Below, in pieces: positions 1-42,090 of a DNA stretch of 64,000 nt. The first letter of the stretch is position 1, and each line of letters begins with the position of its first letter. Under the pieces are notes generated by a model. The model was given only the letters and a program-made list of their open reading frames with translations. It did no database searches and was not told the origin of the DNA. Origin of the DNA: Nitrospirales bacterium (lineage in GTDB: Bacteria; Nitrospirota; Nitrospiria; Nitrospirales; UBA8639); contig OY820905.2 of the NCBI GenBank assembly GCA_963555755.3, positions 2,976,001 through 3,040,000 of the forward strand. The letters run 5' to 3'. The position numbers were made by a program, and so were the translations under genes.

Positions 1-346
1 AGCCGGCAAGAATATGGGTGTGCACCAGATTTGGCTTTTCCCTGAGGTAGATTTCCCGCAGGCGGCGTGACATGGCAATATTTGCAGCACTCGACAGCTG
101 CCAGATGGCTTTGTGAATGGCAGACTGATCTTTGTTGCGTATATGACTCATCCAGTTGTTGACCCCAAGGTAATGGACGGTAACGCCGTTTACGCTATGG
201 GTAGAGTCATAAAGCTCTTTCGCCAGGGTGAGGATAACGACATCATGTCCAGCCTGCTGCAGGCCTTCGGCAAGATGCTGAACAGATATGTCAGCGCCGC
301 CGTGAAAATTGGGGGCATAATAGCTGTTGATCATAAGTATCTTCAT
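1..346 (-). CDS. GT4-family glycosyltransferase, N-terminal part (runs off window start)
   Basis: Manual minus-strand translation from ATG at 346: MKILMINSYYAPNFHGGADISVQHLAEGLQQAGHDVVILT...EKPNLVHTH, a typical GT4 N-terminus; not in the ORF track. Confidence 0.85.
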   Translation of the reverse strand, partial: MKILMINSYYAPNFHGGADISVQHLAEGLQQAGHDVVILTLAKELYDSTHSVNGVTVHYLGVNNWMSHIRNKDQSAIHKAIWQLSSAANIAMSRRLREIYLREKPNLVHTHILAG

Positions 347-1283: not shown

Positions 1284-1328
1284 CTTCGGAACCGAGGGTT
1301 ACAGGTTCGAGTCCTGTCAGGCGCGCCA
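1284..1328 (+). other. tRNA-Arg(TCG) 3' half, att-site remnant T1
   Basis: cttcgga anticodon loop, T-arm ACAGG-TTCGAGT-CCTGT, ends gcgcgCCA; no D-arm or 5' acceptor strand. Confidence 0.85.
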
Positions 1329-1563
1329 TGAAATCAAGAACTTGTGAGGTATCACGACTCCCTACCATTCTGTTGATCGCAATTTATATTCCCCTGATGA
1401 TTTACAGGGGAGGAAAATATTCCGTGGACGGTTAAGAGAAAAACAAATCCCAAAAGACTCCCATTCTTCTTAGGAAAATCACCTTTGGGATGGTGATGAG
1501 TTTCTGGCTCGAACTATTTCTGTTGCCTGCCCAAAGGCTCCCTTCGTCCTTGTCCTATCCACT

Positions 1564-3969
1564 ATGAAGACCCTTTTAGCCTGGTGTTTTACAAACATTA
1601 CGAATAAATATCCCGGCACCATTTTGGCACTTGCCATCATGTTGAGCGGCCTGTCGGTTTATGCGGCCACCGGCCTGGCCTATAACTCGAGGATAGACAA
1701 CCTGCTTCCCCAGGATCTCCCTTTGATCCAGGAATTTAACGAAGTGGTCGCCAAAACTGGTGGGTCCGGCCCTTTGGTGGTCGTGCTGGAAGGGTTGGGT
1801 CTGAGCCAGGCTCCCCAGGTCATCGGTCAGTTGACGAAGACGCTGGAAAAAGTTCCCGGAACCCATTACGTCGATTCGCAGATTCCTAAGGATTTTTTAA
1901 ACAATCGCCAGCTCTTCCTGATTTCAAGGCAGGAACTGCTTCAACTCGAAATCCTCATCGAGGACGCGATCGATTACGCCCGCGGGCAACTGGGAGGCAT
2001 TTTTGTGAATGCCGAGCATTTCAACTCCGAAAAGCTGCAGTCGCTGGTCGAAGACTACAATATTTTCGGTGAATTCAATCCCTACCATAGAGGGAGAAGC
2101 AATACAAAATACTATATTTTCGTAAAGCCCAAGGGAACGGTCACGGATACGGAATTTACCGAACGGTTTGTTCATTCGATTCAGGAGGCGATTGATCGCA
2201 CCGGACTCGAAGAAAAATTTTCAGGCCTTAAGATCAACCTCACAGGTTCCCTGGTGGTTCGCCTGGAAGAAAATCAATTCATCCTGCGGGACCTCAAAAG
2301 AGCCGCTTTTTTGGCCGCTTTTCTGGTCACCTCCATGATCTTCATTTACACGCGGTCCTGGTTCTCGATTCCGCTTATTATTTTTCCCTTAATATTGTCG
2401 ATGACCTATACATTTGCTTTGACGCGGTTGATCATAGGGCATCTCAATATCATCTCAGGTTTTCTAGTGGCCATTCTCATGGGCCTGGGTATCGATTATG
2501 GAATTCATCTTTACATACGATTCAAACAGGAACTCCTTAAGGAAAATTCCATTCCCCGAGCGGCGGAGTACGTGGCCACCCATGTGGGGCGATCCGGTTT
2601 AATTGCCATGCTGACCACGATCAGCGTTTTTTCCATTTTGAGTTTTTCCGATTTCCGCGGCTTCTCGGAATTCGGTACAATCGCCACGATGGGGATCGTT
2701 TGCGCGTTTCTCACCTATTTTTTCGTATTTCCCGCCCAGGCCCTTTTTTACGATAAAATCCACTGGCTGGGAAAGCCGAAACCCAGGCTCTTCAACCTGA
2801 GGATTTCTAACTTCTATTCCAACATGCCCTATTTTCTTGCTGCCTCGTTTCTTCTTTTGATGGTGGGGAGCCTGTTCCTCCTCCCGGGAGTGGAGTTCGA
2901 ATATAACTTTCAGAAATTGCGCGGCGATTCCCCTGCGGGCGACTATGAAACGGCCAGCACGGACGATTTCGGCTTCGCTTTTTCTCCCACGGTGATCCTT
3001 ACTTCGACAAAAGATAATTTGTTCTACATTCATGAAGCCTTGCAGAAAATCAAGGAACAGAACGGAGACAAAAGCACGATAGGAATTCAGTACTCCTTGA
3101 ACCTGTTCAGTCGAAAGGAATATGAGTCTAAAAAGGAAATTCTTGACCGTATTCGGAAACGGTTTTACGAGGACAGCGACATAATTCGGTTTTCGCTGGG
3201 AGAGACCAGGTATCACCAGTTTGAGCAACAGTTGAACAGCGAACCTTTTGATGAGTCCGCCGTTCCAGGAAGCCTGGTACAAAAACTCAAGGCAAAAGAA
3301 GACTATCTATTGCTGATGTTTTCACCTTCGGATAAAAACTTTTTCAACGTGAAACATGTTTATCAATTGGCCCGGGAAATAGAAACGTTGAAGTCCCTGC
3401 TGGCGGACAGGAATATTCCCACATCCATAATGAACGAAAACCTTCTTGCCGCGAAAGTCCTGGACTGGGTCAAGGAAAAAGGCCCCAGGGCGATGGTCAT
3501 CGCTGTAATCCTTGTTTTTCTGATCCTGGTGATCGACCTGCAGAGTTTGACGCTTGCCCTCAAAACCTTCCTTCCGTTGTTTACGGGACTGGCCTTGACC
3601 GGCGCCCTCATGGCGTTTTTTCATGTCAAACTCAACTTCATAAATATCGTCATGCTTCCTTCCATTGTGGGGATCATGATCGGAAGTTGCGTCTATCTCA
3701 GTCACCACATCCTGGATTGCACTAATGGGGATACTCTTCGATCCGTACAGGAGACAGGCAGCGCCATCATCCTTTCGTCCCTGACCAGTCTGGCGGGGTA
3801 CGCGAGTTTGAATATTGCCCATCACGCGGGTATTCACTCCATTGCCACCATGGTGGAACTCGGAATATTGACCTGCACCGTTTGTACCTTGTTTATGCTC
3901 CCCGCGTTGTTCGAGATAGGTGCCCATAGGATTTCCTTTGACAAACATGGAACGACACCACCCGAATAG
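1564..3969 (+). CDS. MMPL/RND-family lipid exporter (HpnN-like)
   Basis: 801 aa, two repeats of TM plus periplasmic loop plus TM bundle, GLGIDYGIH motif. Confidence 0.9.
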   Translation: MKTLLAWCFTNITNKYPGTILALAIMLSGLSVYAATGLAYNSRIDNLLPQDLPLIQEFNEVVAKTGGSGPLVVVLEGLGLSQAPQVIGQLTKTLEKVPGTHYVDSQIPKDFLNNRQLFLISRQELLQLEILIEDAIDYARGQLGGIFVNAEHFNSEKLQSLVEDYNIFGEFNPYHRGRSNTKYYIFVKPKGTVTDTEFTERFVHSIQEAIDRTGLEEKFSGLKINLTGSLVVRLEENQFILRDLKRAAFLAAFLVTSMIFIYTRSWFSIPLIIFPLILSMTYTFALTRLIIGHLNIISGFLVAILMGLGIDYGIHLYIRFKQELLKENSIPRAAEYVATHVGRSGLIAMLTTISVFSILSFSDFRGFSEFGTIATMGIVCAFLTYFFVFPAQALFYDKIHWLGKPKPRLFNLRISNFYSNMPYFLAASFLLLMVGSLFLLPGVEFEYNFQKLRGDSPAGDYETASTDDFGFAFSPTVILTSTKDNLFYIHEALQKIKEQNGDKSTIGIQYSLNLFSRKEYESKKEILDRIRKRFYEDSDIIRFSLGETRYHQFEQQLNSEPFDESAVPGSLVQKLKAKEDYLLLMFSPSDKNFFNVKHVYQLAREIETLKSLLADRNIPTSIMNENLLAAKVLDWVKEKGPRAMVIAVILVFLILVIDLQSLTLALKTFLPLFTGLALTGALMAFFHVKLNFINIVMLPSIVGIMIGSCVYLSHHILDCTNGDTLRSVQETGSAIILSSLTSLAGYASLNIAHHAGIHSIATMVELGILTCTVCTLFMLPALFEIGAHRISFDKHGTTPPE

Positions 3970-4084
3970 CCTGAGGGGCGTGATTATTCCAATCACCATG
4001 TTTCATAACGAAAATTCCTCCTGAGTTCGTTTCTGGAGGGCGGTTTTTTTGCTAAAATTTTGGTAAAGCGCCTCGGGTGCCTTT

Positions 4085-5158
4085 ATGTCAGACATTCAAC
4101 CTGATTTAAATTTTCCAATCCGAGAGGCCAGGGAAATTGTTAAGGATTTGATGGTTCCCAATTCTTTAATTTATTGGGCCGATTTTCTTTTTCATGTCTT
4201 CCTGGGTTGGGGAGCTTTTGTCCTGACTCTTCTGCCCAGCCCGTTTTCCTATTACCCGTATGTTTTTTTCATTGTGTCCTCCCTGGCTCTATTCCGGTCG
4301 GCTATTTTTATTCATGAGCTGACTCACCTCAAAAAGGACTCTTTTAAAGTATTCCGGATCGTGTGGAACGTGTTATGTGGTTTTCCTCTTATGATCCCTT
4401 CTTTTCTATATCAGGGGATTCATAACGACCATCATAAAAGGAATCTTTATGGTACGGAAGAGGACGGGGAGTATTTCCCCTTTGTGAAAGAGGGGAGATG
4501 TAAAATTATATTGTTTGTCATTTTTTCGTTTCTTGTGCCCGTCATTTTTTTCATCAGGTTCATTTTTCTGACGCCGATTTCCTATGTAAATAAAAAATTC
4601 AGGTCGTGGGTTTTGGAAAAGGTTTCGTCCTTTTGCATCGATTTGAGTTACCGGCGGACCTGGGCATCTTTAGCCACGGTTCCGATGTGGCAGGTTCAGG
4701 AAGCGGTGACCTGCTTGTATGGTTGGGCCTTCATTGTACTGGTGAGTATGGGAATATTGTCCATTGAGGTCTTGATATTGTGGTACCTTGTTACAGCAAC
4801 GGTTTTTTTACTCAATTCCCTGAGAACCCTGGCCGCACATCGTTACCGTCACCCCGGCCACAAAACCCTGGATTTTTCCGAGCAGCTCCTGGATTCGGTA
4901 AATATTTCGGAAAACCTTCTCGCTATCCTGTGGGCTCCTGTTGGACTGCGATTTCATGCGACGCACCACCTCATTCCGGAAATTCCTTATCATTCCCTGG
5001 GAAAGGCTCACCGGCGGATTCTTCAGGAGTTCTCGAGGAAGGATCTTTATGATCGAACCGCATGCCGAGGTCTGGGGGCTGCCCTAGGGCGCCTTTGGCG
5101 GGAGGCGGGACAGGGCTATTTCATATTAAAGTGTAACTTTATAGATAATAAGGAATAA
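4085..5158 (+). CDS. Membrane fatty-acid/sphingolipid desaturase or hydroxylase; C-terminus altered by ISAs1 insertion
   Basis: His boxes HELTH, HNDHH, HATHH; the original end WREAG-PLP* can be rebuilt from 8035-8055. Confidence 0.85.
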   Translation: MSDIQPDLNFPIREAREIVKDLMVPNSLIYWADFLFHVFLGWGAFVLTLLPSPFSYYPYVFFIVSSLALFRSAIFIHELTHLKKDSFKVFRIVWNVLCGFPLMIPSFLYQGIHNDHHKRNLYGTEEDGEYFPFVKEGRCKIILFVIFSFLVPVIFFIRFIFLTPISYVNKKFRSWVLEKVSSFCIDLSYRRTWASLATVPMWQVQEAVTCLYGWAFIVLVSMGILSIEVLILWYLVTATVFLLNSLRTLAAHRYRHPGHKTLDFSEQLLDSVNISENLLAILWAPVGLRFHATHHLIPEIPYHSLGKAHRRILQEFSRKDLYDRTACRGLGAALGRLWREAGQGYFILKCNFIDNKE

Positions 5159-5205
5159 TCGATTTAGGCTGGCTTTTTCTTTTCGTTTACGGCATACTCT
5201 TTTGC

Positions 5206-6953
5206 ATGCCAGACGAATCGCCAAGCGGACAGCCGGACATTGATCTGAGGCAAGTCGTGGTTCGCCCAATTGTCCGAGACGAAAAGGACGCCTTCAAGAC
5301 CCTTCTCGACAGACACCACTACCTCGGTCATGCCCCGCTGATTGGCCAATCGATACAATATCTCGCCTGTGTGCAGGATCGCTGGCTGGCCTTGCTGGTG
5401 TTTGCGGCGGCGGCCCTCAAATCGAGACCGCGAGACCACTGGATCGGCTGGCCCCCCTGTTTTCAATGGCAACGACTCCATTTACTGGCCAACAACACCC
5501 GGTTTCTCATGCTGCCGGGCTGTTCGCAAAAGAACCTCGCCTCGAAAGTCCTGTCGCTCTGCGCGAAACGGATCTCGGCCGATTGGCAACTGTACCACGG
5601 CTACCCCTTGCTCCTCTTAGAGACCTTCGTCGATCCTGCCCGCTTCACCGGGACCTGCTATCGGGCCGCCGGGTGGCACGAGCTCGGTCTGACACGAGGG
5701 TTTCGCAAGTCGAACACGTGTTATGTTCAGCATGAGAGACCGAAGCGCATCCTAGTCGTGCGGCTGCATCCCCAAGCCCGAGAGATCCTTGCACGCCCGA
5801 TGCTTGATCAGCCCTATCAGAAAGGAGAAGCGCCTCAGATGAGATTGAATACAAAACAGACGGACTCCCTCTTTACGTATGTGGTGCAGCTGACCGATCC
5901 CCGCCATTTGCAAGGGCAACGGCACACCCGACGCGCCCTCACGGCGATCATGTTCTGTGCCACCTTGTGCGGCGCGCGCGGCTATGAAGCGATCTCGGAC
6001 TGGGCCCAGCAGTTATCGCAGCCGATGCGCAAGCGGCTAGGCTGTACTCAGCGAGGGGGGCGCTACCTCGTCCCGAGCCGCAGCACTCTTTACCGCTTTA
6101 TCACGGCCGTCGACCCCTGTGAAGTCGATACCCTGCTCGGCCGGTGGCTGGACACCTTCGGCGGGGAGGATCAGGGCATTGCCATTGATGGGAAGACCAT
6201 GCGGGGGACGTCGAAGGTCCCAAGCGAACAGACCCACGTCCTCAGCGCCGTCACCCATCAAGCCGGGCGCCACCTCACCCAAAAAAAGTTCACTCCAAGA
6301 CCAATGAGATCCCCTGCGTGCGGCCCCTGTTAGATGCGCTCGAGATCGCAGGGAAGGTGATCACGGCGGATGCGCTCCTCACCCAGAAAGAGATTGCCGA
6401 GTACCTGGTGCACGAACGCGGCGCCGACTTCGTCTTCACCGTCAAGGGAAACCAGCCCACCTTGAAGCACGACATTGAGGCCTTAGCGTTGCGAGCACGC
6501 CGGTGCGATTATGCCACCACCGAGAAAGGCCATGGGCAGATCACGACCCGCAGGATCTGGTGCGATGACTCCCTGAATGCCTATGTCAACTTTCCTCATG
6601 TCCAGCAAGTCTTCTGCATTGAGAGGGAAGTGACGCATCTCAAGCAGGGCCTCACGACCGTCGAAGCGGTCTGCGGTGTCACGAGTCAGTCCAAAGACAA
6701 GGCGGGGCCGAAGACCATCCTCTCGCAAAACCGAAAGCATTGGAGTGTGGAGAATAAGCAGCATTATGTGTTGGACGTCACCTTTGATGAAGACAGGAGT
6801 CAGATACGAAGTCTCAATGGCCCAATGGTCATGACCTGTCTGAGACGCTATGCCATCAGTCTCTTACGCCTGAAAGGCTACACCAATATCGCGCAGGCGT
6901 GTAGACTGCTCTGGGGCAAGCCCCATTTAGCCATCCGCATGGCCCTGCCCTGA
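5206..6953 (+). CDS. DUF4338-fused ISAs1 transposase, two ORFs (5206-6333, 6318-6953) joined by a -1 frameshift
   Basis: LETFVDP..F.GTCYRAAGW; IAIDGKTMRG; A7G at 6281-6288 leads to KTNEIP, ITADALLTQ, VKGNQPTL, RKHWSVENK. Confidence 0.9.
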
Positions 6954-7004
6954 AAAAGAGGGCACAAAAAACCTCATGGAATCCCTTGCTTATAAAAAGA
7001 ATGA

Positions 7005-8016
7005 TATGCCTTCCCATTTAACTAAGGTTGCTTCAGTTTATTGAATCCCAAGGGTTTTGAGCTGCTGGTCAGGATTTTCAACAAACTCTGGAAGGTACTC
7101 ATTGGAGTCTCACGGCGGTTATAGCGAAAGACAAACTCATCAAGATAGTGTTGCAGGTATTTTGAATCCACTCCATGGTGAATCCCGTTCAGCCAGGTCT
7201 GCAGATTGCCGAACGCTCTATGGATGTGTGGAGCGTGCTTCCCAGCACTTGCTGGGTCACCCTGGGTCCGTCTCAGGTGTTCGTATCCTGCCAAGGCTTT
7301 TGCCGAGTATCCCTTCCAACCATCGGACTTGATCTTACTGCCCTCAGCGACATGGCTATTGAGGAATGCTTTGATCTCGTTCTCTCCAGCGTCTTGAAGA
7401 ATCGCTAATCGTAAACGCCCTGCTTTCTCTCGAAAGTGATCCCCTTGTGTGTACGTGACAATTTCTACGGCTCCGGCTATTAACGTCTTGGTTTTCGCTT
7501 TCGCGACGCCACGGCCCGTTTTGCCTTTTACCGGTCCACCGATATGGGTTTCATCGGCTTCAACTGTTCCTGCGAGCCGTTCACGGTTCTGTCGTACCAT
7601 TCCTCGTCGCAATCTGTGGAGCAAATACCAGGCGCTATCCACCTTCTTGATACTGAGTTGACGCTGCAATTGCACAGCACTGATGCCAGGTGTGTGCGTG
7701 GAGACGAAATAGGCAGCCCAAAACCAAAGCCGTAGCGGCAAGTGCGATCTATGCATCACTGTGCCGCTTAGCGGTGATGTCTGTCTATGACACGACGAAC
7801 ACTCAAACCGGAAATATTTTTTGAGCCACCAACCACCGCGATGACCGCAAGCTGGACACATAAACCCGTCTGGCCACCGAATCGCCCGCAAGTACTCGAA
7901 GCACGCTTCTTCGGTGTGGAACCTAACAGAAAAATCCAAGATATCAGCAGCATACCCTGTGTCCATAGTCCAGCAGACTAGTCTAGGGACTAACCTTAGT
8001 CAAATGGGAAGGCATA
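7005..8016 (-). mobile_element. IS1595-family IS
   Basis: 25-bp IRs TATGCCTTCCCATTT(A/G)ACTAAGGTT with one mismatch; 8-bp TSD AAGAATGA at 6997-7004 and 8017-8024. Confidence 0.95.
7022..7966 (-). CDS. IS1595 (ISXO2-like) DDE transposase
   Basis: Zn ribbon CPAC..CSSC, VEADET, SDGW.GY, YLDEFVFRYNRR. Confidence 0.93.
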   Translation of the reverse strand: MDTGYAADILDFSVRFHTEEACFEYLRAIRWPDGFMCPACGHRGGWWLKKYFRFECSSCHRQTSPLSGTVMHRSHLPLRLWFWAAYFVSTHTPGISAVQLQRQLSIKKVDSAWYLLHRLRRGMVRQNRERLAGTVEADETHIGGPVKGKTGRGVAKAKTKTLIAGAVEIVTYTQGDHFREKAGRLRLAILQDAGENEIKAFLNSHVAEGSKIKSDGWKGYSAKALAGYEHLRRTQGDPASAGKHAPHIHRAFGNLQTWLNGIHHGVDSKYLQHYLDEFVFRYNRRETPMSTFQSLLKILTSSSKPLGFNKLKQP

Positions 8017-8177
8017 AAGAATGAAATGGCCCTGGAGGCGGGACCATTGCCCTAGTTTAGGAGGGATTTTAATGGTATGCTCCTTTTTCCCGTGAAGTCT
8101 TCCAAAGTAGCAGGTTCTCCCACTAAAGCCGTTTCTTTCTAACCCGAGCCCATTCAACCCTAATAGGATAAACAAAT

Positions 8178-9476
8178 ATGAACAAGTCGTTCCCCGATAC
8201 AGAAAGCGCCAAAAAAAAAGTACTTCAAATAAAGAAAAAATTTGATTTTGAAAATGGGCACCTAAACCCTTCCCCCAAAAACGATGAGAATATTCTTTCA
8301 AAATGCTTCAACCACACGGCCCCAAGCCAGGCAAGAGATTTAGGGATCTATCCGTATTTTCGTGAGATCGAGGAAACGGGCAGTTCCCATGTGGTGATCG
8401 GCGGCAAAAGGGTCGTTACCCTTTCCAGCAACAATTATCTTGGTTTGGCCAAGGATTCTAGGGTGATTGCAGCCGGGAGGGCGGCCCTTGAAAAATTCGG
8501 AATTGGGTGCACCGGTAGCCGGTTCCTCAACGGCACACTGACCTTGCACTGCACGCTGGAAAGGGAAATTTCCGGTTTTCTCAACCGGGAGGACACCATT
8601 GTCATGTCCACGGGTTTCCAGGCCAACCAGGGAACCATCGCCTGTCTTCTGGGAAAAAAAGATATCGCTTTTTCGGACCGTGAAAATCACGCGAGTATTT
8701 ATGAAGGGTGTGCTGTCTCCCCCGGCAAAACAATACGGTACCGCCACAATGACATGGAACACCTCGAATATCTCCTTAAAAAATATTCGGAGGTGAAAGG
8801 CAAACTGATTATCACCGACAGTGTTTTCAGTATGAGCGGCGATATCGCTAATCTCCCTGAAATCGTGAAACTGAGCAAAAACTACGGGGCCACGCTGATG
8901 GTGGACGAGGCCCACGGACTGGGCGTTCTGGGAGAAGGGGGGAGGGGAATATCCAATTATTACAATGTGGAAAAAGAGGTCGATATTTATGTGGGGACCT
9001 TTTCCAAAAGCCTTGGGTCGATCGGCGGATTCGTTTCCACGAAGGCCGGTGTCGCCGAATACATCCGGCACAAAGCCTCGGCTTTCATTTTTACGGCGGC
9101 TTTGCCGCCGGCATCGGTGGCCGGGGTCATTGCCGGTCTCGACATCCTGATCAATGACACCGAGCGCAGGAACCGGTTGCATGAAAATACGGCCTATATC
9201 AAACGGGCCTTCTTCGATATGGGCATCCAGGTAAATAATAACCCTGTTCCTATAGTGCCCATCCAGATCGGTGATGAGGCCGTTACCCTCTATTTAAACC
9301 GGCTCCTCTTCGACGACGGAATTTTCGCGGGCGTGGCCGTGTCGCCAGTGGTTCCTCCCTCAAAAGCCATGATTCGTACCAGCTATACCTGCGAGCACAC
9401 CCGGGAGGACCTGGACGGGATTCGCGATTCTTTCAAGAAAAATATAGAGCAATTGGGCATTCTCCCGCAGCAATGA
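8178..9476 (+). CDS. spt: Serine palmitoyltransferase (PLP alpha-oxoamine synthase family)
   Basis: SNNYLG, GCTGSRFLNGT, DRENHASI, DEAH, GTFSKSL; the GSRFLNGT motif and gene context favour Spt over BioF or Kbl. Confidence 0.8.
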   Translation: MNKSFPDTESAKKKVLQIKKKFDFENGHLNPSPKNDENILSKCFNHTAPSQARDLGIYPYFREIEETGSSHVVIGGKRVVTLSSNNYLGLAKDSRVIAAGRAALEKFGIGCTGSRFLNGTLTLHCTLEREISGFLNREDTIVMSTGFQANQGTIACLLGKKDIAFSDRENHASIYEGCAVSPGKTIRYRHNDMEHLEYLLKKYSEVKGKLIITDSVFSMSGDIANLPEIVKLSKNYGATLMVDEAHGLGVLGEGGRGISNYYNVEKEVDIYVGTFSKSLGSIGGFVSTKAGVAEYIRHKASAFIFTAALPPASVAGVIAGLDILINDTERRNRLHENTAYIKRAFFDMGIQVNNNPVPIVPIQIGDEAVTLYLNRLLFDDGIFAGVAVSPVVPPSKAMIRTSYTCEHTREDLDGIRDSFKKNIEQLGILPQQ

Positions 9477-10594
9477 CCTGTGAAATTAATAGGGTTGAAA
9501 CCCCCGCCGACATCAATCGATTTATTCGGATGCCATGGGAAATTTACCGTGACCACCCCTGCTGGATTCCCCCACTCATCAGTGAACGTAAAAGATTTCT
9601 GAATCCTAAACTCAACCCCTTCTTTGAGCAGGCCGAAGTGGACCTGTGCCTGGTCCTTTCCGCAAACCGGACCCCGGTCGGGCGAATCGCCTTTATCATG
9701 AACCACGCCTATAACCGGTTTCGCTCAGAAAAAACGGGGTTTTTCGGAATGTTCGAATCGGTCAATGAAAGGGAAGCATCCGGCCTCTTGTTGGACTGGG
9801 CCTTCAATCGGTGCCGCGATCGAGGGCTCGATCAGCTGGTCGGACCCGTCAATCTTTCAACCAACCACGAATGCGGTCTTTTGGTTGATGGGTTCAATAC
9901 GCCGCCCATGGTCGGAATTCCGTACAATCCTCCTTACTACAGTGACCTTCTTGAACAATGGGGTTTGAGCAAGGCGAAAGACCTCCTTTCCCTTAAATTA
10001 GAGATGACCGGAATTCCGGAATATCTGGAGTCGGCCATTTCCCGTTTGGTGAAAAGGAACCGTTTTTCCGTCCGGCCCATACGCTTGGACAGGTTTGAGG
10101 AGGAAGTCGATATCATGTGGGAGGTCTATAATGCCTCATGGAGCGCAAACTGGGGATTTGTCCCGATGAGCCGAAAAGAGTTTGTTTTTTCGATGAATGA
10201 GGTAAAGATATTCATTCAACCGGAATATGTATTGATTGCCGAGGTTGAGGATGAACCGGCAGGGTTTTCGTTGACCCTTCCCAATATCAACCAGGTGCTC
10301 AGGAAAATAAATGGGAGCCTTTTCCCTTTTGGGTGGGCCACCCTTTTATGGAATAAGAATAAATTAAATTCTTACCGGGTGGTGGCTTTGGGAGTGAAGA
10401 AAAAATATCGGCGTCTGGGCATTGACGCGTATTTTTATTATGAGATCTACCGGCAACTTCTGGCCGGGAATATCCCCTGGCTCGATATGTCCTGGGTGCT
10501 GGAAGATAATGAAGATATCCTGGCTCCCCTTCATCGAATCGGTGGGACGATATACAAACGGCACCGTATCTATGAACGTGCTTGCGCCTCTTGA
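9473..10594 (+). CDS. GNAT-fold N-acyltransferase, bacterial ceramide synthase (bCerS)-like
   Basis: PWEIY..HPCWIPPL, GRIA, GFFGMFES, GLLVDGF..PPM...YNPPYY, WSANWGFVP, SWVLEDN; ATGA overlap with spt. Confidence 0.8.
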   Translation: MTCEINRVETPADINRFIRMPWEIYRDHPCWIPPLISERKRFLNPKLNPFFEQAEVDLCLVLSANRTPVGRIAFIMNHAYNRFRSEKTGFFGMFESVNEREASGLLLDWAFNRCRDRGLDQLVGPVNLSTNHECGLLVDGFNTPPMVGIPYNPPYYSDLLEQWGLSKAKDLLSLKLEMTGIPEYLESAISRLVKRNRFSVRPIRLDRFEEEVDIMWEVYNASWSANWGFVPMSRKEFVFSMNEVKIFIQPEYVLIAEVEDEPAGFSLTLPNINQVLRKINGSLFPFGWATLLWNKNKLNSYRVVALGVKKKYRRLGIDAYFYYEIYRQLLAGNIPWLDMSWVLEDNEDILAPLHRIGGTIYKRHRIYERACAS

Positions 10595-11582
10595 GAACGC
10601 CACCGCGGTGGTGACCGGGGCCAGTGGTTTCATCGGCAGCCACCTGGTTGACTATCTGGTGGAAGGGGGGTGCACGGTTTACGCCTTAATCCGTAAAACC
10701 AGCGATCTTAAATGGCTGCGTCAATCGGACCGTGTCAAGCTTCACCTGGCCGACCTGACTCAATCAGACCTTTCCCTCCCTTTTCTGGACCAGGCGGATT
10801 ACCTGTTTCACTGCGCCGGGCTGACCAAAGCAAAAACAGAGGCGGAATATTTCAAAATAAACGCCGAGGGCTGCACCACTCTTTATGAAAACTGCGTGTC
10901 CACAGGGAAAAAGTTCAAGGCTATTGTTCACCTGAGCAGCCTTGCAGCGGTGGGTTCGGGAGAAGTCCACAAGGCGGTCGATGAAAATTCACCGTGCAAA
11001 CCGCTCACTTTCTACGGAAAATCCAAACTTGCCGGGGAGGAAACCGCTTTAAAATTCTCCTCCTCCCTTCCGGTGGTTATCATTCGTCCCCCGGTGGTCT
11101 ACGGTCCCAGGGAAACAGACTTTTTCACCTACCTGAAAGCCATCCAGAAAGGATGGAAGGTTAAAATTGGCCATGGCCCCCGGGAACTTTCCCTGATCCA
11201 CGTCCAGGACCTGGTGCGGGCCATGGTAGAGGCCGCGGTTCGTTTCCCCCGGGATGAGAATATCTTTTTCGTTACCGATGGGAAGGCTTATTCCTGGGAG
11301 GATGTGGCTGAAACCGCCATGCAGATACTGAATGTTCGCGCGAGAACCCTCGCCATTCCGGAATCGTTGTTTGCCGGGGTCGCGTGCGTCTCGGAAGCCC
11401 TTGCGTGGTTCGGTTCCACCGCCCCATTGATAGACAGGCAAAGACTGATTGATGTGCGCCAGAGTTCCTGGGTGGCTTCCCCCAAGAGATTTTTTGACCG
11501 TTATAATTTCCAGCCACAATATGACCTGGAAAAGGGGTTAAGGGAGACTTTGGCCTGGTATCAAGAGAACCGCTGGATGTGA
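10572..11582 (+). CDS. NAD(P)-dependent extended SDR/epimerase, candidate oxidised-ceramide reductase (CerR-like)
   Basis: TGASGFIG, YGKSK, RPPVVYGP; overlaps the upstream gene; start moved to ATG 10572. Confidence 0.75.
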   Translation: MNVLAPLENATAVVTGASGFIGSHLVDYLVEGGCTVYALIRKTSDLKWLRQSDRVKLHLADLTQSDLSLPFLDQADYLFHCAGLTKAKTEAEYFKINAEGCTTLYENCVSTGKKFKAIVHLSSLAAVGSGEVHKAVDENSPCKPLTFYGKSKLAGEETALKFSSSLPVVIIRPPVVYGPRETDFFTYLKAIQKGWKVKIGHGPRELSLIHVQDLVRAMVEAAVRFPRDENIFFVTDGKAYSWEDVAETAMQILNVRARTLAIPESLFAGVACVSEALAWFGSTAPLIDRQRLIDVRQSSWVASPKRFFDRYNFQPQYDLEKGLRETLAWYQENRWM

Positions 11583-11585
11583 TCT

Positions 11586-12455
11586 ATGAATGATCCCGAC
11601 AATCAGCCCCATGTTGTGGAAGACCTGGTGGAACCGGTCAACCGGTATGTCCATAACCCCATTGCGGCAGCGATCGTAAAGTTTTTAAAAGGAACCCCGA
11701 TCACCCCCAACCAGGTAACCTACGCCTCAATTTTTATCGGATTGTTTTCGGCCTATCGATTCAGTCTGGGAACAGGACTTTCCATGGTTCAGGGGGGCCT
11801 CTTGCTGGAGGGAGTCTTGATTCTGGATTGCGTGGACGGTCAGTTGGCACGGGCCAAGGGGTGTTCCAGCGATTGGGGTCGTCTCCTCGACGGAATTGCC
11901 GGGTACATCATTTATCTGGCCGTCCTGTTGGGAATCATGGTGGGCTTGAAAAATCATTATGTGGCCCTGTCGGTCATCGGTGCCGTTACCATTCTCAAAG
12001 CCATATCTTACGACTATTGCAAGCTCAGCATGAACACCCTGATTCAAAAGGGATATGACGGAAGCCAAAAAGAGATTTACGACACGTATCAGAAGATCAG
12101 GGAAAATTCCTCGTTCACTCTTAAGTTATATTTTTATTACCTGCAGGTTCAGCAAACCCTGTTTGGCGGGCGGTGGTTTACATTGGACCGCTTCGGGGAA
12201 AAAACAGAAAAACCCCCCGATGAACACCTATTGAATCAGGAGCAGCGCGAACAATACCGGAATAATGCCCGAACCCTGATGGCCGTCTGGAGTTGGAACG
12301 GCGTTGATTTTCCTCTTTTCCTGCTGGCCGGATCGGCCATTTTTGGGATTCTTGAACCCTGCCTAGTGCCCCTGGCTTTTATTCTGACAGGTCAATACAT
12401 TCTCACCATGCTCTATCATGCGCTAAAAAATACAAGTTTTCATGCAGGGAGTTAA
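11586..12455 (+). CDS. CDP-alcohol phosphatidyltransferase
   Basis: TPNQVT and DCVDGQLARAKGCSSDWGRLLD signature. Confidence 0.9.
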   Translation: MNDPDNQPHVVEDLVEPVNRYVHNPIAAAIVKFLKGTPITPNQVTYASIFIGLFSAYRFSLGTGLSMVQGGLLLEGVLILDCVDGQLARAKGCSSDWGRLLDGIAGYIIYLAVLLGIMVGLKNHYVALSVIGAVTILKAISYDYCKLSMNTLIQKGYDGSQKEIYDTYQKIRENSSFTLKLYFYYLQVQQTLFGGRWFTLDRFGEKTEKPPDEHLLNQEQREQYRNNARTLMAVWSWNGVDFPLFLLAGSAIFGILEPCLVPLAFILTGQYILTMLYHALKNTSFHAGS

Positions 12456-12618
12456 ATTAATTCGGTTTTTATCATCGATGGGTAATCTGAAGTCCGCCCG
12501 CCTGCTTCCATTCTGAATGCCTGTGACCTGCCCAACACTAGATTTGACAATACATCAATGAACCGAATAAATTAGTATACGGGAAAATCAGCTTTTTTAT
12601 TTTGCGCAGGGTAAACAA

Positions 12619-12753
12619 ATGACTGGAAAAGTCATCTTTGTACTTGTGATCGGCCTCATGGCCATCGTGGTCAGTGTTTTGGCGTGTACGGGCTGGATTT
12701 ATGGATTTGCCTGGTGGCGCCGCAGAGAATACTTTAACGATACTTCCTCATAA
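12619..12753 (+). CDS. Putative 44-aa single-pass membrane microprotein
   Basis: MTGKVIFVLVIGLMAIVVSVLACTGWIYGFAWWRRREYFNDTSS; TTGACA at 12544 with TAAATT 18 bp later. Confidence 0.55.
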   Translation: MTGKVIFVLVIGLMAIVVSVLACTGWIYGFAWWRRREYFNDTSS

Positions 12754-13118
12754 CCTCATTTCTCTCCCCTCTTTGCATCTCTAAAGTCCAACAGTCAAAA
12801 CTTAGAATGTCGGCTGGCCTGTATTAAACGGCGGTAGAAGTCATAGCTCCTAAACACGGTTTAACTTCTTTGCCGTTTTCCCCTTAACCATTCTTTTGCA
12901 TTGAAGACAGGGGAAGTAAGGCAAGGCAGTCAACGATTTAAAAATCCCCCCATTGGGGGACCACCTTTGGACTTCCAGGAAAGGACCCACTTCCAGCTCT
13001 GAATCTATCAAGATCACATTCTATAACACTTGAAAATAGCGATTCCCCTTTGTTGAAGAGGATATTATGGCACTATTTCGCCCTTAATCATTCTTAGTCT
13101 AATCCTGATCGGTAGAGA

Positions 13119-13163
13119 TTTCAGAACCGGGCGTTAGGGGTTCAAGTCCCTCCGGACGCGCCA
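13119..13163 (+). other. tRNA-Arg-like 3' half, att-site remnant T2
   Basis: ttcagaaccgggcgttAGGGG-TTCAAGT-CCCTCcggacgcgCCA; about 100 bp downstream shared with T3. Confidence 0.8.
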
Positions 13164-13298
13164 GTTTTTCTTTCCAAATCGAAATTCCAATAAAAAAGTT
13201 TAGTCTGCCATCATTTTTGGAACAGGCGGCATGAAAAAAATCCCACCAATCTGAATGTGGTGCCCCAAATCTGACCCTATACACATTATTAAATAGGA

Positions 13299-13799: not shown

Positions 13800-14255
13800 T
13801 TAGGCTGCACCTTCGATCTCTTCAATATCCTGCGTGAAATCAAATACAATCCTAATGGGTTCCCCCTCGTTTTTGTTTTGGTTGTAGCTGTTTAGATCTG
13901 ACTTCAACTGTCCGCAGTCTCCTACTATTTGCTGCCTCCTTTGCTGAAAGGCAATTTTCATATGTTGTGGTGAAGCTGTGCGAATATCAGCCCAAAATGT
14001 TGTCTGCTTGCCTTGGCTCAAAATCCTAGCAGCGTGTTTGGCTCGCACAGTTCTTCCTTGGGGATCAACTATGTAATCTTCACGCATGGCTTTGGAAATT
14101 TGATCAGCGCATTGGTTAATGACTGTGCTCGGATGAGGCTCCCAAAGATCGTTCCGTATAGCCCATGCTGCTATGGCACGACTCGTTGCGGGCCAGGGCT
14201 GCTTGGCCTTAACGTATTTAGAAACAATTTCTTGCATTTGTTTTGTGTAAGTCAT
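13800..14255 (-). CDS. Hypothetical protein (151 aa) in higBA operon
   Basis: GGAGG RBS, 15 bp after the higA-ImmA stop; no recognised domain. Confidence 0.8.
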   Translation of the reverse strand: MTYTKQMQEIVSKYVKAKQPWPATSRAIAAWAIRNDLWEPHPSTVINQCADQISKAMREDYIVDPQGRTVRAKHAARILSQGKQTTFWADIRTASPQHMKIAFQQRRQQIVGDCGQLKSDLNSYNQNKNEGEPIRIVFDFTQDIEEIEGAA

Positions 14256-14270
14256 AACTATTTAGCCTCC

Positions 14271-15413
14271 CTAAAGACCTGATGGGACAGTACCCCATCC
14301 ATCCGTCAAAGCCGCAGATGTGATGATCTCTTTTATTTTTACCAACAAAGGCCTATTTTGAGACCAAAGAATTTCTTTTCTGTGCTGAAGTTGACCTACC
14401 GCAATGCCAGGATGGATATTATTGTTATTGGCAAACCTTGTGATATTTATTTTGGAATACAGGGGGCTTACCCTGGTTATAAAATTCTCCAATTTGTCTT
14501 GAGGGATTAAGTTTCCTACAGCAAACTTATCCGCCGCCTTCTCTGCAGGCGGCTTATCCGCTAGTGCCGCTGCATCCTTCCCTATCAGATCCGTGTCTAA
14601 TGTCTCGTAGCTATTGTTCAATCCATCACGATTCTTTATGTGCCCTAATTCATGAAAGAGTGTATGCCAAAACGAATCAATTCGATCGTACCTAAGTGAT
14701 AGGACGATAACGGGAGAATGAGGGTTAAGCCAAAAACATGCTCCATCAATTCGTGTTTTGGGAATGGCCTCAACCGTCAAAAATCGAATACCACATTCAG
14801 CAAGGATTTGTGGAACGAGTCTAATCTCTTGTGGTGCATGAAGAAGTTGTTGGAGCTTAAAAATAGCCAATTTAAAGTTGGCCTCATTAAATTTGTTTGC
14901 AGTAACCGCCTTAGATAGGTGTCTTGCACGATATAGCCAAGCTAGTTGAGATGGTGTAGGCTTTTTATATGCCAAGGAGGTTCTTGCAGCGAATGCCCAA
15001 AACCGTATCTCTTGGTCAAGAGTTTTTATTTCTAAGAAGTCCATGACCCTGCTTTCTAAGACCTCAATATTTGTTGACGATTCAATCCAGCCACGCCGAA
15101 TCATTTCCTTCACAGGAGCCTTTTCATATAGTTTGGCCCGTCGAGTCACCGACTCATCAGACTTCTTTATCCTTGACAACTGAAACGCGTTTTCTAGATT
15201 CAACCAAAGTTCTGGTGAGGTGCCGAAAGCGTCAGCCAACCCTTTTGCAGTTTCAGGAGTAACTGATCGCTTCCCAGAAATAATTTCGTTGATGCGGTTG
15301 AGAGGACGACCAAGGATGTCGGCTAAATCGCCTTGGGTCCATCCTCTTTCCTCAAGTTCTTCCCGTATAAATTCTCCCGGAGGGAAAACCTCTACTGAAG
15401 TCCGATTAGACAT
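14271..15413 (-). CDS. higA: HigA-type HTH antitoxin fused to ImmA/IrrE Zn-metallopeptidase
   Basis: PPGEFIREEL, INEIISGKRSVT, WLNLE; C-terminal FWHTLFHELGH...EKAADKFA. Confidence 0.9.
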   Translation of the reverse strand: MSNRTSVEVFPPGEFIREELEERGWTQGDLADILGRPLNRINEIISGKRSVTPETAKGLADAFGTSPELWLNLENAFQLSRIKKSDESVTRRAKLYEKAPVKEMIRRGWIESSTNIEVLESRVMDFLEIKTLDQEIRFWAFAARTSLAYKKPTPSQLAWLYRARHLSKAVTANKFNEANFKLAIFKLQQLLHAPQEIRLVPQILAECGIRFLTVEAIPKTRIDGACFWLNPHSPVIVLSLRYDRIDSFWHTLFHELGHIKNRDGLNNSYETLDTDLIGKDAAALADKPPAEKAADKFAVGNLIPQDKLENFITRVSPLYSKINITRFANNNNIHPGIAVGQLQHRKEILWSQNRPLLVKIKEIITSAALTDGWGTVPSGL

Positions 15414-15427
15414 TGTTATCCTCCGAT

Positions 15428-15724
15428 TTAGTGATAATCTTCAATTGATACTATAATGACAGTCTTTGTGTTTCTTTCCTTTTTGAATTCAAGAATCAAC
15501 CTATATTGGTCATTTAAGCGCATAGAATATTGTGACTTTCTTGCTCCCTTTAACTTTTCGAAATGCAGTGACTTCATTTGGCGAAAATCCCTTTCGTCAA
15601 CAGCATTACGAATAAATTGCATTCGTTTCCAAAATACTCTAACCGCCGCTTGCGGCAATGTTGTAGGGGCCCGTGGATCCGTTTCGAGCCTATCCATGGC
15701 ATCGTCCTGAAATTCAACCTCCAT
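15428..15724 (-). CDS. higB: HigB (RelE/ParE family) toxin
   Basis: LHFEKLKG...YSMRLNDQYRLI...IEDYH; upstream of the antitoxin. Confidence 0.9.
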   Translation of the reverse strand: MEVEFQDDAMDRLETDPRAPTTLPQAAVRVFWKRMQFIRNAVDERDFRQMKSLHFEKLKGARKSQYSMRLNDQYRLILEFKKERNTKTVIIVSIEDYH

Positions 15725-18479: not shown

Positions 18480-18731
18480 GGGGGGGGGGGGGGGGTAAAA
18501 TTCATTCGACGCTGAGAACAACAGATGTGGGCTAGAAAAGGATTGCTGCCCTGAATGAAGATTTCCAAGTACTTGACTAAGCCGCTGGTTTACTCCCGGT
18601 TTTACTCCCGATTCTGAATCTACTTCAATCGCAATCCATAACACTTCGACCAAGAAAATCCCTGGTTTTAAAAGTGCTTAGTAGTCATAATGACAATCAA
18701 TCGTCCTTAGTCTCAATGTCTGTAGTTGGGT

Positions 18732-18776
18732 CTTCGGAACCAAGGGTTGGGAGTTCGAGTCTCTCCATGCGCGCCA
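18732..18776 (+). other. tRNA-Arg(TCG) 3' half, att-site remnant T3
   Basis: cttcggaaccaagggttGGGAG-TTCGAGT-CTCTCcatgcgcgCCA. Confidence 0.85.
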
Positions 18777-22752: not shown

Positions 22753-23706
22753 TTACACAGCTTCTTTTTTTTGGTGGTGGGCGTACAGATATTGTGAAGG
22801 AACCGGTCTAAGATCCCATATCAGCCCCAACCAAGAGAGAACCACGAGCCCATAATACGTGATATCGATTTCCCACCAGAAAAAACCTTGGCGGGCGGAT
22901 GAGGCATAATGGTGATGATTGTTATGCCATCCCTCTCCCAAGGTGATGATGGCCAAGTATGGGTTATTTCGACTTTCATCGGAGGTATCATAGCGTTTCT
23001 TCCCCAGCAAATGGGACAGAGAATTAATCGTACTGGTCCCATGCAAAAGAACCACCGTTGAAATAAAAAATCCCCAAATCAACATTTGCATTCCGTTGGT
23101 GCCAAGACCAGGGGCATAGGCGTGTAATAATTCCCCAAAGCCAAATACCGACACGGCAAATAAAAGGGGAACCATGGTGTCAAAGCGGTTCAGGAACTGC
23201 AGCTCTGGAAATTTTGAAAAATCCCCAACCAGATCATGCTTGGTGGCAAAATTTTGCTTGGAGGTGAGCCAACCAATCTGGCTCCACCAAAATCCAGTAT
23301 GATGCGGGGAATGAAGATCCTGTTTTTTATCAGAGTACCGGTGATGCGTGCGATGATGCGCGGCCCACCATAATGGTCCCCGTTGGACAGCAGTTGCCCC
23401 GGCCAGAGCAAAAATAAATTGGCATGTTCGAGTTGTTCGAAAAGCTCTATGAGAAAAATAGCGATGATAAAATCCCGTGATTGCAAACATTCGAAGTATA
23501 TACAAGGCAACAGCGACTGCAACTGCGGTACTACTCCAGCCTACCCATAAGACCCCCAAGCACATAAAATGCATGAAGAAAAAGGGCGATGATTGGACCC
23601 AATCTATCCGATGAGGATCTTTTGAAGGGTCAATGGACTCTGTCGCATGGCAATCAAACCAACGGATAATAGATTTAATAATACTCGGCTGAGTCAGCAA
23701 AGACAT
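22753..23706 (-). CDS. Acyl-CoA/acyl-lipid delta-9 desaturase
   Basis: YHRYFSH, WWAAHHRTHH, GEGWHNNHH. Confidence 0.93.
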   Translation of the reverse strand: MSLLTQPSIIKSIIRWFDCHATESIDPSKDPHRIDWVQSSPFFFMHFMCLGVLWVGWSSTAVAVAVALYILRMFAITGFYHRYFSHRAFRTTRTCQFIFALAGATAVQRGPLWWAAHHRTHHRYSDKKQDLHSPHHTGFWWSQIGWLTSKQNFATKHDLVGDFSKFPELQFLNRFDTMVPLLFAVSVFGFGELLHAYAPGLGTNGMQMLIWGFFISTVVLLHGTSTINSLSHLLGKKRYDTSDESRNNPYLAIITLGEGWHNNHHHYASSARQGFFWWEIDITYYGLVVLSWLGLIWDLRPVPSQYLYAHHQKKEAV

Positions 23707-34983: not shown

Positions 34984-35471
34984 TCCCTGTCGCTAGATGA
35001 TGTTCAACCAAGCAGCGAAATCTCCTTTGAAGATGAATCCGTGGTTACGGCAAACTTTGAGACATTTGATGGTCTCAAAGGCACAGTGAAATTGCTTCGA
35101 AAAGACGAGAAGAATTACGTGAAAATATCGGCAGCCTTCAATGCTGCTCTAATCTGGAAACCCGAACCCGAAGAAATTTCGGAAACCGAAAAACCAGTTG
35201 AAGGAGAAAATGCTCAGGATAAAGACGATAACGAGATAGTAGAAGCTCCCAAACCTGAGAAACCCAAGGTAAAAATAGAGGCCGAAGTCAAAGCCGAAAT
35301 TGAAGCTCTAAATAAAAAAGTCAGTGAATGGATTTACATCATCCCCAAATTCCGCGCCGATACCATCCTCAAAAAACCTGAAGATCTTATTAAGAAATCT
35401 TAGAAACTACCTCTCAAAAAAATGGCCCTTTTCAGTCCCCCTCCTTTGTAAGGAGGGGTAAGGGGGGGGAT

Positions 35472-36222: not shown

Positions 36223-37489
<1,267 letters not shown>

Positions 37490-37509
<20 letters not shown>

Positions 37510-38726: not shown

Positions 38727-38860
38727 GTGGTCTATCCCCGAAATGGTGGACACCTCTGAAACGCGCGACAATGCGCATTGAGGGATGTCATGCCGAAGCA
38801 GTGAGGCTATACCTAACCATTCAAAGGAAAAGCCCCACCGCCGAAACGATGAGGCTCTCA
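38727..38860. repeat. Repeat C (IS3-like IR start) plus repeat-B terminator; second copy at 44719-44860
   Basis: gtggtct.tccc.gaaat.gtggacac...ctaac.attcaaaggaaaagccccaccg. Confidence 0.8.
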
Positions 38861-39093
38861 TGGGTGACGCTGGTATCGATGGTTCGATTAGGCCAACACC
38901 CAGAGCCAGAACACCACCGTATTTTCTTCAGCTCTGTGTCCAAATTGTTCTAACGACATACACTTCACGTTGATCAAAGCATATTTAATCGCTTCCCACC
39001 CTCGCTCCCTTCCGGGTTACGTCAATAGTAAGCAGTCCCCGATATCGGGTATAGGATAGCGCCGAGAAGATCTTCATTGGCATTCATTCTGGC

Positions 39094-39564: not shown

Positions 39565-39664
39565 TGGTGTCTGTTCTAACGAACTCAGGACAGCTCAGCC
39601 CCAAAATGCCTGTCGCCGAACTCCCGCATTATGGAGGAAGGATACTGTATTTAGGTGTGATTGC

Positions 39665-39790: not shown

Positions 39791-39852
39791 CAACCATCGT
39801 CACAGACCAATTATGCAACAACGCTTGCACAGGCTTGAACAATCCCAAAGGA

Positions 39853-40563: not shown

Positions 40564-40631
40564 AATATTCTCCTTTTACCTGATCGTTCCTTATTATCGG
40601 GGGTCCCAATCAGGCCTGCTCCCTCACAGAT

Positions 40632-42066: not shown

Positions 42067-42090
42067 CGATAACCCCAATACGTCTGGTAA

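Follow-up and report, generated by a model that had tools for sequence, protein, structure and literature searches.

How a Nitrospirota chromosome came by an apparent sphingolipid operon, and what that operon makes, is the question raised by a 64,000-nt stretch of contig OY820905.2 of a Nitrospirales bacterium (the window; coordinates refer to it unless C1, the chromosome contig of this host genome, G000, is named). On its plus strand, six co-oriented open reading frames (ORFs) between positions 1564 and 12455 encode an MMPL-family transporter, a desaturase, a serine palmitoyltransferase-like enzyme (Spt), homologs of bCerS and CerR, and a CDP-alcohol phosphotransferase-family protein (CDP-AP). 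An earlier note on this DNA took them for a horizontally acquired ceramide pathway with the MMPL protein as a candidate exporter. We assign a probability of roughly 0.6 to the reading that a ceramide operon derived from Nitrospinaceae, its product exported by the MMPL protein, resides in a genomic island of this Nitrospirales host.

Origin of the cassette

Transfer of the six-gene cassette from Nitrospinota across the phylum boundary is very probable, and the donor was likely a member of Nitrospinaceae. Homologs of cerS were found in 74 of 120 Nitrospinota genomes, in 67 of them at an identity of at least 49%, and orthologs of the MMPL protein (57 to 72% identical) were found in 66, with 63 genomes carrying both; these counts include related genomes, which are not independent and for which completeness is not given. 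The desaturase, spt, and cerS genes stand in this order in all five named Nitrospinota loci, four of which continue into the short-chain dehydrogenase/reductase (SDR) and CDP-AP genes, and the flanks of the Nitrospinota operon are ordinary chromosomal genes. In a quick tree of 54 rows, the window Spt fell deep inside the Nitrospinota clade. In a careful tree of 23 of these rows, prepared without the BioF, Kbl, and proteobacterial Spt entries and without some of the redundant ones, it joined G247 and G165 and then G220, with support values of 100/99. Approximately unbiased (AU) tests rejected both a Nitrospinota clade excluding the window Spt (P = 0.020) and a clade of the window Spt with Nitrospiraceae Spt-like proteins (P = 1e-37). 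For the remaining five proteins, trees built with FastTree gave the same sister group, G247/G248/G165 (support, 88 to 100), with which the window also shares the gene order MMPL-desaturase-spt-cerS and a "GS" variant in transmembrane segment 10 (TM10) of MMPL that is present in 31 of 149 MMPL rows.

Among the host's own relatives, the cassette DNA was found in none of six same-genus genomes (three of them at least 90% complete), the desaturase in none of 114 family genomes, and the MMPL gene in none of 400 Nitrospirota genomes (E ≤ 1e-60, two candidates scored per genome), and no match to Spt exceeded 46% identity in 150 genomes of the order. Homologs of cerS at 34 to 39% identity occur in 20 of 60 host relatives. 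The site is empty in the sister genome G002, where the tRNA-Arg gene is followed after 151 bp by a gene for a 317-aa desaturase; the two are 37 kb apart in the host. Nesting within Nitrospinota, absence from relatives in the genus and the phylum, and the empty site in G002 together point to a cross-phylum transfer into a tandem island that lacks an integrase. The horizontal acquisition in a tRNA island proposed in the earlier note is thus borne out by the patchy distribution, the empty site, and the trees, and Nitrospinota can be given as the donor.

The host genome is 4.6 Mb in size and 99% complete. It encodes an NxrA-type protein of 1,145 aa, the 90% cluster of which includes proteins of "Candidatus Nitrospira allomarina" and Nitrospira sp., so that nitrite oxidation by the host is likely, in keeping with the nitrite-oxidizer lineage that had been supposed. 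AtpG and AtpH of the host cluster with "Nitrospirales bacterium," and the genome lies outside the 120-genome phylum set that holds the named Nitrospinales genome G166.

Other sphingolipid genes are present among the relatives of this host. In sister Nitrospirales genera (L214 to L219 and L223), cerS is clustered with spt and cerR of the proteobacterial type, and the L214 cluster is of the Caulobacter type, comprising aasR-cerR-acp-spt, cerS, lptF2G2, a kinase, a CDP-AP, and a hydroxylase gene. Such clusters in sister genera imply two unrelated sphingolipid systems within one family. In addition, two Nitrospiraceae genomes (G145 and G157; loci L111 and L112) carry a Bacteroidetes-type Spt-like gene (44 to 46%), with no cerS within the 12 to 20 kb read.

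Purifying selection acts on the cassette in the lineage that received it. The dN/dS ratio was 0.10 to 0.17 for five genes in comparison with L131, a metagenome contig that is 95 to 96% identical in DNA, and 0.08 to 0.23 for four genes in comparison with L130, a near relative (94%).

An assembly chimera, or a contaminant from a Nitrospinota cell, would also account for the Nitrospinota-like proteins and for the lack of a second Nitrospirota carrier among the GTDB genomes searched. However, the two insertion sequences (ISs) in the cluster have 32 (ISAs1 family) and 35 (IS1595 family) genome copies at an identity of at least 99%, and single read contigs of runs X1 and X5, from two studies, span positions 1289 to 5136 and 8006 to 13186 and link the cluster to the ISs and to the bordering tRNA remnants at even depth. 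The independent contig L131 shows the same borders. On the IS copies and the bridging contigs, this explanation is rejected as extremely improbable; the cassette belongs physically to this chromosome. Run X1 may be the source of this assembly.

Gene layout and the tRNA-Arg island

The genes and borders are listed in Table 1. The six families named in the earlier note were recovered in the ORF list and by Pfam and NCBIfam (MMPL, FA_desaturase, Aminotran_1_2, Epimerase-type SDR, and CDP-OH_P_transf), with the GNAT-fold protein having no match in either collection. As described there, the last four genes overlap or abut (a 4-nt overlap of Spt and GNAT, a 23-nt overlap of GNAT and SDR, and a 3-nt gap before CDP-AP), and the ORF list and a Pfam scan place no acyl carrier protein (ACP) or acyl-ligase gene in the cluster. 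The ORF list starts the SDR at an upstream TTG (10422); its homologs begin at the ATG at 10572. The described gene set held, but the genes do not form one uninterrupted run: two nested ISs (2.9 kb) between the desaturase and spt had been overlooked.

Table 1. Features of the cassette and its borders (window coordinates)
Feature	Position	Strand	Evidence or remark
T1, tRNA-Arg(TCG) 3' half, att-type remnant, left border of cassette	1284..1328	+	44/45 bases identical to intact tRNA at G000:C1:2961327-2961402; same place in IS-free L131
MMPL/RND transporter, HpnN-like branch, 801 aa, candidate sphingolipid exporter	1564..3969	+	PF03176
Membrane di-iron His-box desaturase/hydroxylase	4085..5158	+	PF00487; codons 1-342 native, last 15 residues IS derived
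ISAs1-family element	5111..8034	+	NF033564, Pfam; 9-bp target duplication 5102-5110/8035-8043
IS1595-family element nested in ISAs1 right end	7005..8016	-	NF033547 above cut-off; terminal inverted repeats; 8-bp duplication
Serine palmitoyltransferase-like pyridoxal phosphate (PLP) enzyme (Spt), Bacteroidetes/delta-type subgroup, 432 aa	8178..9476	+	Structure match, NCBIfam, tree
bCerS/YghO-family tandem-GNAT acyltransferase, 373 aa	9473..10594	+	YghO homology, AlphaFold 2 (AF2) fold, cerS hidden Markov model (HMM)
CerR-family extended SDR, 336 aa	10572..11582	+	cerR HMM; best-hit relation; TGxxGFIG and YxxxK intact
CDP-AP without motif aspartate D4, 289 aa	11586..12455	+	PF01066
T2, worn tRNA-Arg(TCG) 3' half, right border of cassette	about 13120..13163	+	77% over 102 nt including following arm; remnant at same place in L131
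T3, further tRNA-Arg(TCG) remnant of tandem array	18729..18776	+	T2-T3 segment carries HigBA and an IS absent from L131
Native 317-aa acyl-CoA desaturase gene, chromosome resumes, outside cassette	22753..23706	-	151 bp after tRNA-Arg in sister G002

The intact tRNA-Arg(TCG) gene lies 14.6 kb to the left of the window, and its 3' half is repeated at C1:2971085 (R0), T1, T2, and T3. Both remnants said to bracket the cluster, T1 and T2, are real, but they are not a sole pair, being two of four in a 37-kb tandem array. The same tRNA site is occupied in G003 by a different, integrase-bearing element of 14 kb and in G006 by still another segment. None of 16 PF00589 (integrase) matches falls within the array (C1:2961402-2998750), serine recombinases not having been searched, and without an integrase the cassette is likely immobile unless helped. 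L131 contains T1, the six genes without ISs, and a T2-like remnant. It differs in its left neighbor and in lacking the T2-T3 segment, which argues that T1 to T2 is one unit. That segment carries an IS and a HigBA toxin-antitoxin pair with a helix-turn-helix (HTH)/IrrE-like antitoxin (13800 to 15724), both absent from L131. To the left of T1 (G000:C1:2971747-2976346, comprising window 1 to 346 and DNA left of it) are a second YchF-type GTPase, a phosphodiesterase, and a glycosyltransferase, and L131 has another segment there. GC content is uninformative as island evidence, at 46 to 54% for the genes and 51% for the genome. Farther along the window, positions 36223 to 37509 and 38796 to 57364 hold a tRNA-Met, an integrase after it, and then several dispersed repeat families of 45 to 84 nt, which probably represent a second island.

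Predicted core ceramide enzymes

Ceramide synthesis by the operon is highly probable, as judged from homology of its three core enzymes. The best solved structure for Spt is a Sphingobacterium-type SPT (346 bits, against at most 272 for BioF/Kbl and 201 for cysteate acyltransferase), and in alignment with 3a2b the PLP-site motifs HAS, DxAH, and GTFSKS and the C-terminal Arg are in place. In the quick tree, the window Spt grouped with Spt and Spt-like proteins and apart from eight BioF sequences and one Kbl sequence (SH-aLRT, 98; HemA not included), and a distinct host protein scores as BioF over its cut-off. A BioF or Kbl identity is rejected on the structure scores, the tree, and this separate BioF, and the Spt assignment of the PLP enzyme in the earlier note is supported. 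According to the available text of PMC9386255, Bacteroidetes and delta-proteobacterial SPTs form one subgroup and an acpR neighbor is tied to Rhodobacteria, which fits the missing ACP gene in the present cluster.

The bCerS homolog and YghO, from the sphingolipid locus of Escherichia coli UTI89, share 34% identity over 377 aa, and no other host protein matched YghO. Its AF2 model (pLDDT, 94) best matches tandem-GNAT folds, and a sequence search gave no relative of solved structure. An HMM of nine cerS homologs from canonical-type genomes matches this host gene only; the comparison was made with UTI89 YghO and syntenic cerS and not with Caulobacter CCNA_01212 itself. An HMM of nine syntenic cerR genes gave the CerR homolog 190 bits versus 81 for the next host SDR, and in four of five genomes its best hit is the syntenic cerR of aasR-cerR-acpR-spt operons, a reciprocal best-hit relation. 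The Spt tree, the YghO match, and the two HMMs thus support the homology to the bacterial ceramide pathway that had been proposed. Genes for acpR, aasR, lptF2G2, and ceramide kinase are absent from the cluster, and the queries used gave no close match in the host genome. Elsewhere, in two Nitrospinota genomes (L268:10098-19173 and L269:9902-19414), a distant cerS homolog and a type I polyketide synthase gene (about 2,550 to 2,580 aa) are divergently oriented.

Desaturase

The His boxes of the desaturase (HELTH 77, HNDHH 113, and HATHH 291) are invariant in 32 rows. In Kordiimonas L072, the gene lies directly ahead of cerS within a canonical cluster, and in 22 of 75 non-Nitrospinota loci, mostly of Nitrosomonadaceae, it adjoins a nucleoside triphosphate (NTP) transferase gene whose product is 47 to 53% identical to that of the canonical cluster. 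Of 121 genomes in the order that includes Robiginitomaculum, only 8 yielded a member of the family, and this rarity argues against a common Caulobacter gene.

CDP-AP and head group

The CDP-AP is nearest in fold to AF2299 and retains D81, D84, and D102, the first three motif aspartates (D1 to D3). The fourth, D4, which the portion of PMC6506517 available presents as the presumed catalytic base of CDP-alcohol phosphotransferases, is Gly in 52 of 55 family rows and Asp in three Nitrospinota rows; in the best 150, 128 of the 135 representatives that bear the motif have Asp. The family has near-invariant acidic residues of its own (E75, D158, and D241), which are not kept in outside relatives. The protein scores 40 bits with the CDP-AP of a Caulobacter-type cluster and 25 bits with the BT1523 model.

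In the earlier note, CDP-alcohol phosphotransferases were said to add phospho-headgroups to ceramide in Caulobacter and Bacteroides. The published accounts do not support this wording: Caulobacter CCNA_01217, a PgsA-domain protein, adds the second phosphoglycerate to ceramide phosphoglycerate (CPG) (PMC9393093; PMC11324152), and in Bacteroides thetaiotaomicron, where BT_1523 carries a CDP-diacylglycerol-inositol phosphatidyltransferase annotation, the ceramide step needs the AUR1-like BT_1522, loss of which removes only inositol ceramide (PMC9246714).

An inositol head was rejected, as inositol synthase (PF01658) was not found in the host or in three of four Nitrospinota genomes. A phosphoglycerate head was likewise rejected, as the ceramide-kinase-like and CDP-AP queries from L214 had no host match. 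Donor and recipient both encode PepM and Ppd, which makes a CMP-activated phosphonate the leading guess. It stays a guess, and an improbable one, since the phosphonate genes are unlinked to the operon and PepM also turns up where the operon is absent. Of 120 Nitrospinota genomes, 88 have a PepM match (about 575 aa). PepM is fused to an NTP transferase in the single case scanned, and in the regions read (L281 to L287 and L290 to L292) the gene adjoins proS. A link by proximity was considered because pepM lies 20 to 26 kb from the operon in five genomes, but it was rejected because in the two of these that were read, G206 and G189, the gene is within a proS-rimP-nusA block and because no operon genes are present at the Ppd loci. 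Two host loci look like a phosphonolipid pathway: G000:C1:1949650-1955913 (L288) and C1:2040657-2043471 (L289) contain a PepM-NTP transferase with Ppd, and a split Ppd with a transaminase-like, a cytidylyltransferase-like, a CDP-AP, and an LPG-synthase-TM gene. The transaminase-like gene resembles those of 2-aminoethylphosphonate (AEP) transaminases; it and the cytidylyltransferase-like gene were named from sequence features.

The product might instead be a non-serine sphingolipid-like lipid (1-deoxy, sulfono, or otherwise amino acid derived), with a noncatalytic CDP-AP and no phospho head. According to the available part of PMC11334938, alanine or other amino acids may serve as substrates of Spt-like enzymes; the window Spt is below the curated cut-offs, and most of the CDP-AP family lacks the presumed base. 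However, the cysteate acyltransferase structure scores far below SPT, three Nitrospinota members keep D4, and the family's own acidic residues are near invariant. We regard this alternative as quite unlikely and retain a serine-derived ceramide as the likely product.

The MMPL gene and possible export

Export of the sphingolipid by the MMPL protein is somewhat favored on the basis of gene context. Of the 63 Nitrospinota genomes with both MMPL and cerS, 33 have them on the same contig, and in 28 of these no more than 7 kb separates the two, which share a strand (22 with MMPL after CDP-AP and 6 with MMPL before the desaturase). The exporter proposal of the earlier note is supported by this conserved adjacency in two gene orders, but the export role itself remains that of a candidate.

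It is less probable, although far from negligible, that the ceramide pathway is real and the MMPL protein a passenger or a carrier of another lipid (hopanoid or phospholipid), with the sphingolipid leaving by a single Lpt system. The closest models and structures are those of the hopanoid pump HpnN and the sterol pump BstA: HpnN is both the best solved structure and the best NCBIfam model, with scores below the cut-offs (TIGR03480, 252 of 752; NF052374, 155 of 1,100). In five genomes, the gene is detached at a separate locus near coaX, and Bacteroidetes make sphingolipids with one lptFG copy. On the other hand, a distinct and longer HpnN-like paralog (about 29% identity) is present in the host and in Nitrospinota, and the MMPL gene stays adjacent through rearrangement, either overlaps the CDP-AP gene or directly adjoins it where it stands downstream, and traveled with the cassette. 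Moreover, seven Nitrospinota with only the distant CerS type lack MMPL. Loss of the TM10 Asp was rejected as a sign of decay, because the 31 homologs mentioned above share it and HpnN also lacks this residue. We therefore keep the MMPL protein as the candidate exporter.

In L130, the cassette adjoins mlaC and HalD-like genes (L130:272-1804), which are 72 to 84% identical to host genes. The host has three MlaC-like genes, and MlaC could be a periplasmic partner of MMPL.

Nested insertion sequences

The desaturase and spt genes are 3,019 bp apart in the window versus 137 bp in the IS-free relative L131. The ISAs1 element, with two ORFs (5206 to 6333 and 6318 to 6953), was inserted three codons ahead of the desaturase stop and replaced the last three codons with 15 IS-derived ones; the L131 desaturase terminates three residues past the junction. 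The nested ISs split the cassette later, in this strain. ISAs1-family DNA (5111 to 8034 and 33086 to 34987) and a second transposase (16012 to 18390) bear a DruA-like PF14236 domain, which is N terminal in the former, and right-end-to-left-end joints in read contigs fit tandem copies present in the genome.

The cassette is probably active in this strain despite the ISs. A rather unlikely alternative holds that it was functional in the recipient lineage and is now silent or half-silent here, because the nested ISs cut it off from its promoter. The 2.9-kb insertion is consistent with this, as is a promoter scan in which sigma-70-like sites were at chance level (11 versus 11.9 expected) and none lay immediately upstream of spt; RNA contigs over the genes are short, at depths of 2 to 4, and inseparable from DNA carry-over. 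However, all ORFs are open, Spt, CerS, and CDP-AP show no window-specific change at 95%-conserved columns, and the native 137-bp spacer persists downstream of the ISs. IS ends can supply promoters.

Proposed pathway and its weighing

In the pathway that we propose, Spt would condense L-serine with a housekeeping acyl-thioester, probably acyl-CoA, since the cassette has no dedicated ACP or ligase. The bCerS homolog would then N-acylate the product, and the CerR homolog would reduce the 3-keto group. The desaturase, an accessory gene in part of Nitrospinota, may add a double bond or a hydroxyl group to one chain. CDP-AP, without the presumed catalytic base, might attach or extend a polar head, possibly from a CMP-phosphonate donor. 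Finally, the MMPL protein would pass the lipid on to the periplasm, a task served in Caulobacter by the LptF2G2 route.

Several observations weigh against a Nitrospinaceae-derived ceramide operon with its own exporter. The lipid chemistry is read from gene content. Spt is under all NCBIfam Spt cut-offs (443 of 640 for NF047600, the best, and 362 of 500 and 301 of 670), although other cerS-linked Spt-like proteins are likewise under that of NF047600. In Nitrosospira, the SDR has no clear cerR match, and position 106 of the window CDP-AP, that of D4, is Gly. The desaturase is missing from many Nitrospinota operons and is near cerS in only 5 of the 75 non-Nitrospinota loci. In 5 genomes, 47 kb to 1.5 Mb separate the MMPL gene from the operon, in 30 of the 63 the gene is on a different contig, and the co-occurrence of MMPL and CerS follows kinship, so that the counts are not independent. 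CDP-AP has the highest dN/dS with L131 (0.41, from 18 and 13 changes), and the IS insertion may interrupt transcription of spt-cerS-cerR-cdp. L130 has the cassette without T1 and beside other genes, which may be a second insertion site. The ParA cluster representative of the host is labeled Nitrospinae, which we read as a binning label.

Significance and published work

Spt-like genes are reported from 38 phyla in the text available of PMC11334938. Literature on nitrite oxidizers, Nitrospinota, or Nitrospira combined with sphingolipids, ceramide, or SPT, and on MMPL combined with sphingolipids, gave no description of the operon or of its transfer, although surveys of predicted producers may list these phyla, and PMC12342949, PMC3578206, and PMC10839748 do not contain the terms "sphingo" or "ceramide." In the part available of a preprint (bioRxiv 10.64898/2026.04.12.717747), sphingolipid transport in Caulobacter proceeds via LptF2G2, and an MmpL beside Myxococcus xanthus spt is suggested as an alternative. 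The idea of an MMPL exporter is thus already in print as a hypothesis, and for the route of sphingolipids to the outer membrane without lptF2G2, MmpL is only suggested so far in that text. The core of the pathway was already known; its portable make-and-export form is unusual, and the cross-phylum transfer is the addition made by this window.

The fullest version, a portable Nitrospinota sphingolipid operon with its own MMPL exporter, a CDP-AP that works without D4, and possibly a phosphonate head that crossed phyla, is speculative and rather unlikely. If true, it would be the first case in which an MMPL protein is demonstrated to export sphingolipids and would reveal a new head-group chemistry. 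The portable unit would have entered a Nitrospirales lineage of a genus without the Caulobacter-type pathway that its sister genera have. The six-gene unit kept MMPL through rearrangement and transfer and offers a ready set for heterologous expression. It predicts an undescribed membrane lipid, and a possible biomarker, in Nitrospinota, the main marine nitrite oxidizers, and would mean that envelope chemistry moves between two nitrite-oxidizer phyla.

Comparison with known systems

The array resembles tandem genomic islands at tRNA 3' ends, in that an intact tRNA is followed by segments each closed by a displaced 3' half and sister sites are empty or differently filled. It differs in lacking a tyrosine integrase, which the G003 element has. 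Clustered homologs of all three enzymes of the Spt-bCerS-CerR pathway (Caulobacter crescentus CCNA_01220/01212/01222; E. coli UTI89 spt, yghO, and RS16555) are present here, with identities to the UTI89 proteins of 38%, 34%, and 26%, respectively, each being the best host match. Unlike the Caulobacter-type cluster, the window cluster has no aasR/acpR, lptF2G2, or ceramide kinase genes, and its Spt is of the Bacteroidetes/delta subgroup; cerS is inside the operon, which additionally comes with genes for MMPL, a PF00487 desaturase, and a CDP-AP without D4. The CDP-AP shares the fold and the D1xxD2GxxAR...GxxxD3 motif of AF2299, DIPPS, PgsA1, Caulobacter CpgA (CCNA_01217), and BT_1523 and differs from them in the replacement of D4 by Gly. 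Like the HpnN/BstA transporters, the MMPL protein belongs to the MMPL/HAE3 branch, with the TM4 Asp kept and the TM10 Asp absent as in HpnN, but it is far below both cut-offs, and the host has its own HpnN-like paralog. The spt-mmpL pair of M. xanthus, with an MmpL gene next to spt as a proposed alternative exporter, is a one-sentence hypothesis in the text available, likened here by description and not by sequence, whereas here the adjacency persists in two gene orders and across a cross-phylum transfer. The native Nitrospinota spt-cerS-cerR-cdp-mmpL operon has the same genes, with 57 to 85% identity to the nearest group and the order of the G247/G165 group; the window copy differs in having a Nitrospirota host, in being flanked by tRNA-Arg remnants, and in being split by ISs.

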